Below, one piece after another: positions 602 through 655 of a stretch of 655 nucleotides of DNA. A program made the position numbers and the translations under genes. Origin of the DNA: Escherichia coli (GTDB taxonomy: Bacteria > Pseudomonadota > Gammaproteobacteria > Enterobacterales > Enterobacteriaceae); NCBI RefSeq assembly GCF_003334255.1, contig NZ_QOWU01000202.1, one strand, 5' to 3'. Position 1 is the stretch's first letter. Each line of letters starts with the position of its first letter. The notes below the pieces were generated by a model. It saw nothing but the letters and a program-made list of their open reading frames with translations. It was not told where the DNA came from and made no database searches.

Positions 602-655
602 ATGGCAAAGCTGGACTGGAAAAAACTGGAGCAGGCATTCCGACGCGAACATGCC
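602..655 (+). CDS. Start of an uncharacterised protein (N-terminus MAKLDWKKLEQAFRREHA...); 3' end beyond the window. Function unassigned; by position it may be the first gene of the next late module
   Basis: ATG at 602-604 is the first start codon after an in-frame TAA at 578-580. 18 codons remain open to the window end, with ordinary enterobacterial codon choice (ctg, gag, cag, gca). A purine-rich AGAGGA lies at 582-587, but the 14-nt spacer to the ATG is longer than optimal. Same orientation as Rz/Rz1. Too short in-window for a firm call. Confidence 0.45.
   Translation, partial: MAKLDWKKLEQAFRREHA

Follow-up and report, generated by a model that had tools for sequence, protein, structure and literature searches.

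We analysed a 655-bp stretch of Escherichia coli DNA (RefSeq assembly GCF_003334255.1, contig NZ_QOWU01000202.1), referred to here as the window, which ends with the beginning of an open reading frame (ORF) at positions 602-655. The best explanation of the data as a whole is, very probably, that this ORF is the 5' part of a small terminase gene, terS, from a headful prophage of the 933W/Sp5 type (Sepvirinae-like), and that the gene holds within itself an array of phased TGCGCA sites, which would be read by the helix-turn-helix (HTH) domain of its own product and would serve to start DNA packaging. That the gene encodes the small terminase subunit (TerS) is highly likely. In this respect it is already known: the name small terminase is used in RefSeq and in the literature on Sp5, and the find itself is ordinary.

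A small terminase gene at the end of the window

The window is 100% identical over its whole length to Escherichia phage PhiR12_3 (PV340552.1, 30013-30667) and to prophages of several E. coli chromosomes, and about 92% identical to VT2-Sakai/Sp5 and many other phages converting their hosts to Shiga toxin (Stx) production. In PV340552.1 the full ORF encodes 283 aa (coding sequence, CDS, 30614-31465; positions 8602-9453 of the PhiR12_3 locus, L001). As 798 nt lie beyond the window and the ORF runs off its end, it was missing from the program-made list of ORFs. The part inside the window (602-655, plus strand) is ATG GCA AAG CTG GAC TGG AAA AAA CTG GAG CAG GCA TTC CGA CGC GAA CAT GCC and encodes MAKLDWKKLEQAFRREHA. 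ATG 602 is the first start codon of its frame, which is closed upstream by TAA 578-580, so that 602 is the only possible start of terS. The ATG-GCA-AAG start is invariant in five diverged loci (from E. coli and from Salmonella, Dickeya and Aeromonas relatives), and in distant relatives nucleotide conservation begins exactly at the ATG, which confirms the start. As this ATG lies 301 nt past the Rz stop codon (TAA 298-300), terS directly follows the lysis cassette in gene order.

The full-length protein matches PHROG 370, 'terminase small subunit', with E = 7.4e-118 (residues 1-283 against profile positions 1-284 of 284). The gene 3' of terS encodes a large terminase (TerL; PHROG 2, E = 5e-52; T4 gp17 nuclease domain, E = 3.7e-8) and is followed by genes for a portal (PHROG 156, E = 1e-252), a probable scaffold and an N4-gp56-type major capsid protein. 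In locus L001, terS occupies 8602-9453, terL 9434-11140 and the portal gene 11140-13284, the capsid gene coming thereafter; terS and terL overlap by 20 nt. The initial annotation, made from the window alone, had described an unidentified gene directly downstream of the lysis cassette, had offered the terminase small subunit as a positional guess, and had proposed to look for a large terminase in the next gene. The ORF proved to be real and to be the first gene past Rz, the guess agrees with the packaging family matched by the full-length protein, and the next gene is indeed a large terminase, with portal and capsid genes behind it.

The order of lysis genes, terS, a gene for a TerL of ~560 aa and a P22-type portal gene is kept in Salmonella, Dickeya and Aeromonas relatives (43-68% identical). 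In the four genera of this comparison, no other candidate ORF was present between the lysis genes and terL. In the enterobacterial loci, terS and terL overlap or abut, unlike in the Aeromonas relative (L006), where two small genes (120 and 116 aa, without Pfam match) stand between them (5932-6641).

Homologs of terS are named 'terminase' or 'small subunit terminase' in public sources. For Sp5, ORF58 and ORF59 were listed as small and large terminase, respectively, by homology (Mondal et al., PMC5155283), and 'small terminase' is also the label of ORF58-type proteins in several GenBank records. The TerL clade of this type is called '933W-type headful' in TerL phylogenies (PMC7317114, PMC6029569). 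ORF58 of Sp5/VT2-Sakai (orf49, NP_050548.1) stands in the same place, before the genes for TerL, portal and N4-gp56-type capsid. It is 78% identical to the PhiR12_3 protein, the first 18 residues being identical and the C-terminal ~150 nearly so, and full-length comparison shows the 283-aa product to be an ortholog of this predicted small terminase of Stx phages.

Predicted architecture of TerS

In an AlphaFold2 model built on a 30-sequence alignment, the N-terminus is predicted to form a three-helix HTH bundle (helices 6-20, 24-30 and 35-41) with a predicted local distance difference test score (pLDDT) of about 90 (77-91 in helix 6-20). The predicted recognition helix is formed by residues 35-41, YGTARRY. 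Residues 46-131 are modelled as a disordered linker (pLDDT <50), which is hypervariable in length and sequence in the alignment, and they are followed by long antiparallel helices (142-181, 185-218 and 221-253; pLDDT up to 97) compatible with a ring core. In solved small terminases, long helices of such kind build the oligomeric ring and contact TerL.

The two ends of the protein have different distributions. Residues 1-50 alone match a second TerS family, phrog_51 (E = 3.5e-12), and the C-terminal domain is unique to PHROG 370. An exhaustive search yielded many proteins which have only the N-terminal domain in common with TerS. Behind the same HTH, Pfam domain Terminase_2 was found in nine of 16 N-terminal homologs (best E = 1.6e-34). 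Variant P0071 represents the opposite combination, with the C-terminal domain of TerS kept and an HTH_psq-like N-terminus that matches other TerS PHROGs. In cultured phages, the HTH domain of TerS always stands at the head of genes annotated as small terminase. Of the independent links to genuine small terminases, this modular sharing of the N-terminal domain is the strongest.

Some database proteins join the N-terminal cassette of TerS to tail-tip, Lom, NlpC/P60 or tail-collar domains. These fusions most likely represent decayed prophages with internal deletions, or assembly chimeras.

The TGCGCA array inside terS

The DNA encoding the linker contains a repeated hexamer. In PhiR12_3, terS has seven copies of TGCGCA, at gene positions 131, 165, 177, 189, 225, 292 and 304, and the array begins 77 nt past the window end:

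gene positions 131-309 (window-equivalent 732-910; L001 8732-8910; PV340552.1 30744-30917), coding strand: phased TGCGCA array in the linker-coding DNA of terS

At the same place, the Salmonella, Dickeya and Aeromonas terS genes carry five, five and seven copies, respectively. The density of the hexamer is 6-8 per kb inside terS versus 0.1-0.7 per kb in the flanks, and the maximum reached in 1000 dinucleotide shuffles was 4-5. The copies belong to an extended motif, AAAA-N-TGCGCA-(A/G)AA, which is always on the coding strand and is spaced mostly by 9, 10, 12 or 14 bp. The AAA-tracts recur with a period of ~11.5-12 bp (power 3.64 versus 0.78 for the 99th percentile of shuffles). Across the 62-kb PhiR12_3 genome, terS is the site of the only cluster of at least three TGCGCA copies within 200 bp, and all six extended motifs are located in terS on one strand.

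The hexamer is kept at the level of nucleotides. Its copies in the linker fall in all three reading frames and belong to 17 peptide contexts (among them SAQ, CA, NAQ, TAQ, VRK, LRK, MRR and DAH). When Ala precedes Gln or His, its codon is GCG in 128 of 140 linker cases versus 3 of 32 cases elsewhere in the same genes, and the codon before it carries T at the wobble position in 131 of the 140, whatever the amino acid. The motif is conserved between TerS proteins that are only 43% identical. The array is selected as nucleic acid, not as peptide. Since it is the DNA of the linker and not its amino acids that is under selection, the linker peptide is free to vary. Under selection as DNA and occurring as a cluster only once in the phage genome, the element has the sequence properties of a pac (packaging initiation) site of the type that lies inside terS.

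Covariation of the array core with the recognition helix

The core of the array changes together with the recognition helix (helix 3) of the protein encoded by the same gene. This was followed in 49 unique terS genes, plus added single loci. All 34 unique genes with helix 3 '...TARR[YH]IK' have 4-7 copies of TGCGCA, and all 15 with helix 3 '...TARTRIK' (Sakai type) have 4-5 copies of YGATCA, which contains the Dam site GATC, at an exact 12-bp period. Within ORF58 of VT2-Sakai, the residues differing from PhiR12_3 TerS (~19-127) cover HTH helices 2-3 and the linker; its recognition helix has ARTRIK versus ARRYIK, and its array consists of four YGATCA at exactly 12 bp (NC_000902.1 27957-27993, the only such cluster in the 61-kb genome) versus seven TGCGCA. 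Salmonella genes with 'TARTQIK' (L095 and L096) have 3-5 copies of YGATCA at 12 bp, encoded through different peptides. Genes with 'TAKRYIK' have TGCGAAT (five copies in Providencia PSTCR3 and four in Yersinia vB_YenM_30.14), plus reverse-complement copies. In the variant with the swapped HTH, TGCGCA is absent and the core is TCCGTCCAG, with three copies of AAAATCCGTCCAG and inverted GGACGG copies. Finally, three genes built on the Terminase_2 scaffold and possessing 'TARRYIK' (L097, L098 and that of phage PHB10, alongside a Terminase_6-type TerL and a Mu-F-type head) carry a TGCGCA array at gene positions ~138-204. The pairs of helix 3 and core that can be discerned number at least four, i.e. 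ARR[YH]-TGCGCA, ART[RQ]-YGATCA, AKRY-TGCGAAT and swapped HTH-TCCGTCCAG.

The association was also approached from the side of the array, by scanning viral contigs for TGCGCA-N3-8-TGCGCA-N3-8-TGCGCA, which gave at least 120 loci. Among the 120 matches listed, 41 loci have a correctly oriented TerS HTH whose end lies upstream of the array at a distance of -4 to +58 nt. Thirty-nine unique proteins were present among these listed matches: 37 of them have [TS]ARR[YH], one is an SVRRYV variant, one has no clean helix-3 match, and none has ART or AKR. Another 39 loci among the matches listed have just three copies, approximately the chance expectation.

Arrays of other kinds were encountered as well. 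Four loci (L117, L211, L212 and L213) have non-coding arrays of five GTGCGCA at 11-12 bp with no TerS HTH nearby, and two (L152 and L169) have low-GC arrays of TGCGCAAA. Other proteins may bind these arrays, or the arrays may represent pac or replication origin (ori) sites of unrelated phages.

A proposed model of packaging initiation

The following model is proposed. A TerS ring would display HTH domains round its periphery, and these would bind the phased direct AAAA-N-TGCGCA-(A/G)AA sites inside terS itself. With its A-tracts and a site period of ~11.5-12 bp, the DNA would be bent on the ring or wrapped around it. TerL would then be recruited, cut nearby and start a rightward series of headful packaging. 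The steps are not equally firm. From the covariation, the array is probably the site bound by the HTH of its own TerS. We also lean, by a small measure, towards the array being the pac site proper. Evenly balanced, in our judgement, is the broadest version, in which HTH and array would constitute a self-contained, portable cassette of packaging specificity within ~330 bp that moves by recombination between PHROG 370 and Terminase_2 scaffolds, exists in at least four helix-3/core pairs and represents the unmapped pac of 933W/Sp5-type phages.

Similar arrangements have been described in other phages. The pac site of P22 lies inside gene 3 (PMC11260489), where the P22 record also annotates it, packaging of phage Gally starts inside terS (PMC9928086), and pac of P1 consists of seven hexanucleotide repeats (PMC11260489). 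TerS of SF6/SPP1 (G1P, a Terminase_2 protein, PF03592) has been described as selecting intrinsically bent pac DNA by a ring of weakly specific HTHs (PMC4737164). Our literature search, incomplete in coverage and thus no proof of novelty, found no mapped pac site of an Stx phage and no mention of the array motif. Starts of GenBank records and ends of IMG/VR contigs were uninformative as evidence of packaging ends, their boundaries looking arbitrary or following prophage limits.

Several points weigh against the reading of the gene as terS with an inner pac. As for the gene, i) the full protein had no match among Pfam and NCBIfam models, ii) searches of the PDB by sequence and by profile found no relative of the 283-aa protein, and iii) fold searches with the TerS model returned generic helical hairpins only, and no TerS. 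Profile comparison (hhalign) with Sf6 gp1 was not significant (E = 0.16), with HTH helices 2-3 aligned at the expected place, and that with lambda Nu1 gave nothing (E = 0.22 over 7 columns), in agreement with the initial annotation, which had seen no resemblance to Nu1. Without a match in Pfam, NCBIfam or the PDB, family membership rests on PHROGs and gene context, and the C-terminal domain is assigned to small terminases through context alone. Moreover, ORF58 was not among the genes deleted in Sp5, and its name is a prediction (PMC5155283). As for the array, helix 3 adjoins it, and a part of the covariation could be hitch-hiking through recombination; independent helix-3/core switches are few, about 3-4. 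Other multi-copy TGCGCA arrays among the matches listed in the reverse scan are peptide tandem repeats or non-coding arrays with no such HTH, which means that the motif is not exclusive to the HTH-array cassette. Lastly, Stx phages including 933W have been called cos phages (PMC7566468), so that published statements conflict, the clade being described as headful elsewhere (PMC7317114, PMC6029569).

The most serious alternative accepts the gene as a small terminase and takes the array for an autoregulatory operator that limits terS-terL expression, packaging being started elsewhere. What the covariation shows is limited to a probable reading of the array by the HTH and does not extend to the effect of binding; the weak ribosome-binding site seen across the family (see below) hints that TerS dosage matters; and a gene-regulatory role of pac-bound TerS has also been put forward for SPP1-like phages (PMC4737164). 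Against this, the cassette forms the beginning of small-terminase genes exclusively, in two scaffolds unrelated to each other, and among the headful phages that have been characterised (P22, Gally and P1) the site inside terS or pacA is pac. We consider the operator unlikely as the sole explanation, and the operator and pac roles are not mutually exclusive.

Start region and translation of terS

The features in the window, all on the plus strand, are as follows:

1-300: 3' part of the Rz spanin gene with stop codon TAA 298-300, the end of the lysis cassette
53-238: Rz1 lipoprotein ORF inside Rz in the +1 frame (MRELKMKLCVLMLLLVVSACGS...), proline-rich, with a lipobox-like VSAC
301-489: post-Rz spacer on the lysis-module side of a mosaic junction, 74-85% identical to lambdoid phages with other packaging modules
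490-601: terS leader, found only with the 933W-type packaging module, with an imperfect local inverted repeat of no demonstrated function
582-587: Shine-Dalgarno (SD)-like AGAGGA, the end of GAGGA lying 14 nt 5' of the ATG, a suboptimal spacing
602-655: first 18 codons of terS (MAKLDWKKLEQAFRREHA), with the start codon and most of the predicted HTH helix 1 (residues 6-20)

The best duplex of terS with the anti-SD sequence is formed by AGAGGA 582-587 (-6.0 kcal/mol). Pairing in relatives ranges from -1.5 to -6.6 kcal/mol and involves other sequences and spacings (for example CAGGA at the SD position of VT2-Sakai terS), and in Aeromonas the start of terS abuts the stop of the preceding gene. The weak site is thus family-wide. 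No promoter, terminator, regulatory RNA or Rfam match was found in the window, including the 301-nt spacer.

The initial annotation had remarked on the suboptimal SD spacing, and rightly so. It had also suggested that this spacing, together with the overlap of the SD with the second copy of a repeat ('repeat copy B'), could indicate translational regulation. The overlap exists: the 9-mer TTAACAGAG occurs at 339-347 and at 577-585. The repeat itself is at chance level, as ~0.8 such pairs are expected by chance in 655 bp, and it was rejected as a regulatory element. An inverted repeat (566-583/616-633) folds round the terS start with -25 kcal/mol (z = -1.94; 7 of 200 shuffles were as good). This start-enclosing hairpin was rejected too, being marginal, absent from Salmonella- and Citrobacter-type relatives and devoid of compensatory pairs (0 found). 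A specific switch of terS translation by the distant SD, the 9-nt repeat and the hairpin is therefore improbable, and the suggestion was not upheld: the different weak SDs across the family fit generally low expression or coupling, and not a specific switch. What remains is a generally weak initiation site, with no evidence for a specific translational switch.

Remaining alternatives

Two further alternatives, one concerning the array and one the gene, are both very unlikely. In the first, the array would act as RNA, with UGCGCA copies pairing as 6-bp stems with 3-8-nt loops and so controlling translation or stability of the terS-terL mRNA. TGCGCA is self-complementary, spacings of 9-14 nt would allow hairpins between adjacent copies, and the initiation region of terS is weak. 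However, the hexamer is kept letter for letter from E. coli to Aeromonas, though a structure would tolerate compensatory changes, and the core changes together with the recognition helix of the HTH. Sites of the TGCGAAT and TCCGTCCAG classes are found in either orientation, and the two orientations are equivalent in duplex DNA and not in RNA; the inverted copies in these two classes thus point to duplex DNA.

In the second, the protein would be another DNA-binding accessory factor encoded beside TerL, for example a regulator, and the real TerS would be located elsewhere or absent. Such a view could draw on the C-terminal domain, which has no detectable homology to any characterised TerS, and on the origin of the TerS name in position and propagated annotation. 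It would leave the loci of the four-genus comparison with no other candidate ORF from the lysis genes to terL, and it does not sit well with the 20-nt overlap of terS and terL or with an N-terminal domain shared with Pfam-recognised Terminase_2 proteins. The predicted succession of HTH, linker and long helical hairpin is likewise that of a small terminase.

The origin of the repeats by replication slippage in a low-complexity disordered linker peptide (AQK and IDH repeats), with no function at the DNA level, is hardly credible, because the period-12 arrays reported by Tandem Repeats Finder and the predicted disorder and hypervariability of the region are set against a hexamer kept while the peptide changes, against the GCG and wobble T preferences and against a motif shared by proteins of only 43% identity, and the AQK/IDH peptide repeats were rejected as the selected feature on the codon and frame test.

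Comparison with known systems

P22 gp3 and Sf6 gp1 have an N-terminal HTH and a helical oligomerisation core in solved structures. Their genes occupy the same position as terS, i.e. upstream of and overlapping terL, with a P22-type portal gene thereafter, and the HTH of Sf6 gp1 aligns with TerS residues 19-44 (not significantly, as given above). The differences lie in the ~85-residue disordered linker of PhiR12_3 TerS, which P22 gp3 and Sf6 gp1 do not have, and in the P22 pac, a single asymmetric site of ~22 bp versus the phased multi-copy array.

The pacA gene of P1 resembles terS in that this gene for the small subunit itself contains the recognition site, a set of several hexanucleotide repeats. 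In P1 the hexamer reads TGATCA/G, and Dam methylation controls cleavage. GATC is likewise present in the array of the Sakai class (YGATCA, 4-5 copies), whereas the PhiR12_3 core TGCGCA has no Dam site. PacA has no protein homology to PhiR12_3 TerS, and the PhiR12_3 sites differ from those of P1 by their regular ~12-bp period with A-tract spacers and by their location entirely in the linker-coding region.

As for SPP1/SF6 G1P, the PhiR12_3-type cassette of HTH and array is fused before true Terminase_2 domains in the nine N-terminal homologs mentioned above, although PhiR12_3 TerS itself gives no match to the Terminase_2 (PF03592) hidden Markov model. In lambda, gpNu1 is encoded by the first gene of the late morphogenetic operon, and its N-terminal winged HTH binds repeated R sites beside the cut site. 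Lambda, however, is a cos phage with the sites upstream of the gene, while the TerL of PhiR12_3 belongs to the 933W-type headful clade and is a relative of T4 gp17.

Surrounding phage DNA

With window 301-655 as query, 433 phage records were matched, about half of them over query positions 1-189 alone (for example BP-4795, lambda-like phages and HK630), and matches from ~490 onward occur only in phages with this terminase. These alignments place a mosaic junction at window ~489/490, between the lysis side and the terminase side. In HK630, the match to window 301-489 is annotated as 'promoter'. The VT2-Sakai RefSeq record has an 86-aa 'Rz-like spanin', orf48, in the post-Rz spacer (L002 8288-8548). 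The corresponding frame in the window (288-392, plus strand) has only 34 aa, is unannotated in E. coli RefSeq records and is probably not a gene. In lambda, bor follows Rz on the minus strand. Bor was therefore considered for the 98-aa minus-strand ORF at 224-520 and rejected: this ORF has a TTG start and no lipoprotein signal, and the region is unannotated in RefSeq.

The ORF of the Rz1 o-spanin (53-238) is unannotated in PV340552.1 and in the E. coli RefSeq records examined. Matches of the window to many Stx2a phages and to some E. coli prophages are split into two pieces ~700 bp apart, and the features annotated under the match include an anti-repressor gene (Rha or Ant family); in VT2-Sakai, ant is located between R and Rz. 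Further upstream, PV340552.1 contains a tandem array of ~80 copies of the heptamer (GACCAGC)n at 21501-22075 (partly L001 1-79). It lies under a CDS named 'Drug resistance transporter EmrB/QacA subfamily', just downstream of the gene for antiterminator Q, where Stx phages carry their stx genes. The EmrB/QacA call over this array is probably spurious.

Implications

The question of annotation is settled by these results, the ORF being the small terminase gene of a common type of E. coli prophage, and little else changes in this respect. In the literature that we found, the site at which the medically important short-tailed Stx phages start packaging appears to be unmapped, and the array provides a precise candidate location for pac, namely PV340552.1 30744-30917 in PhiR12_3 and NC_000902.1 27957-27993 in VT2-Sakai. 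It also explains why the middle of the TerS protein is hypervariable. The natural specificity variants link single residues of the recognition helix to single base changes in the site, which would make them useful for predicting cross-packaging and lateral or generalised transduction, and for engineering packaging specificity. If the model is true, the Dam GATC in 933W/Sp5-type sites means that packaging initiation could be controlled by methylation as in P1, and a simple recognition code would predict which prophages package each other's DNA, or that of the host.

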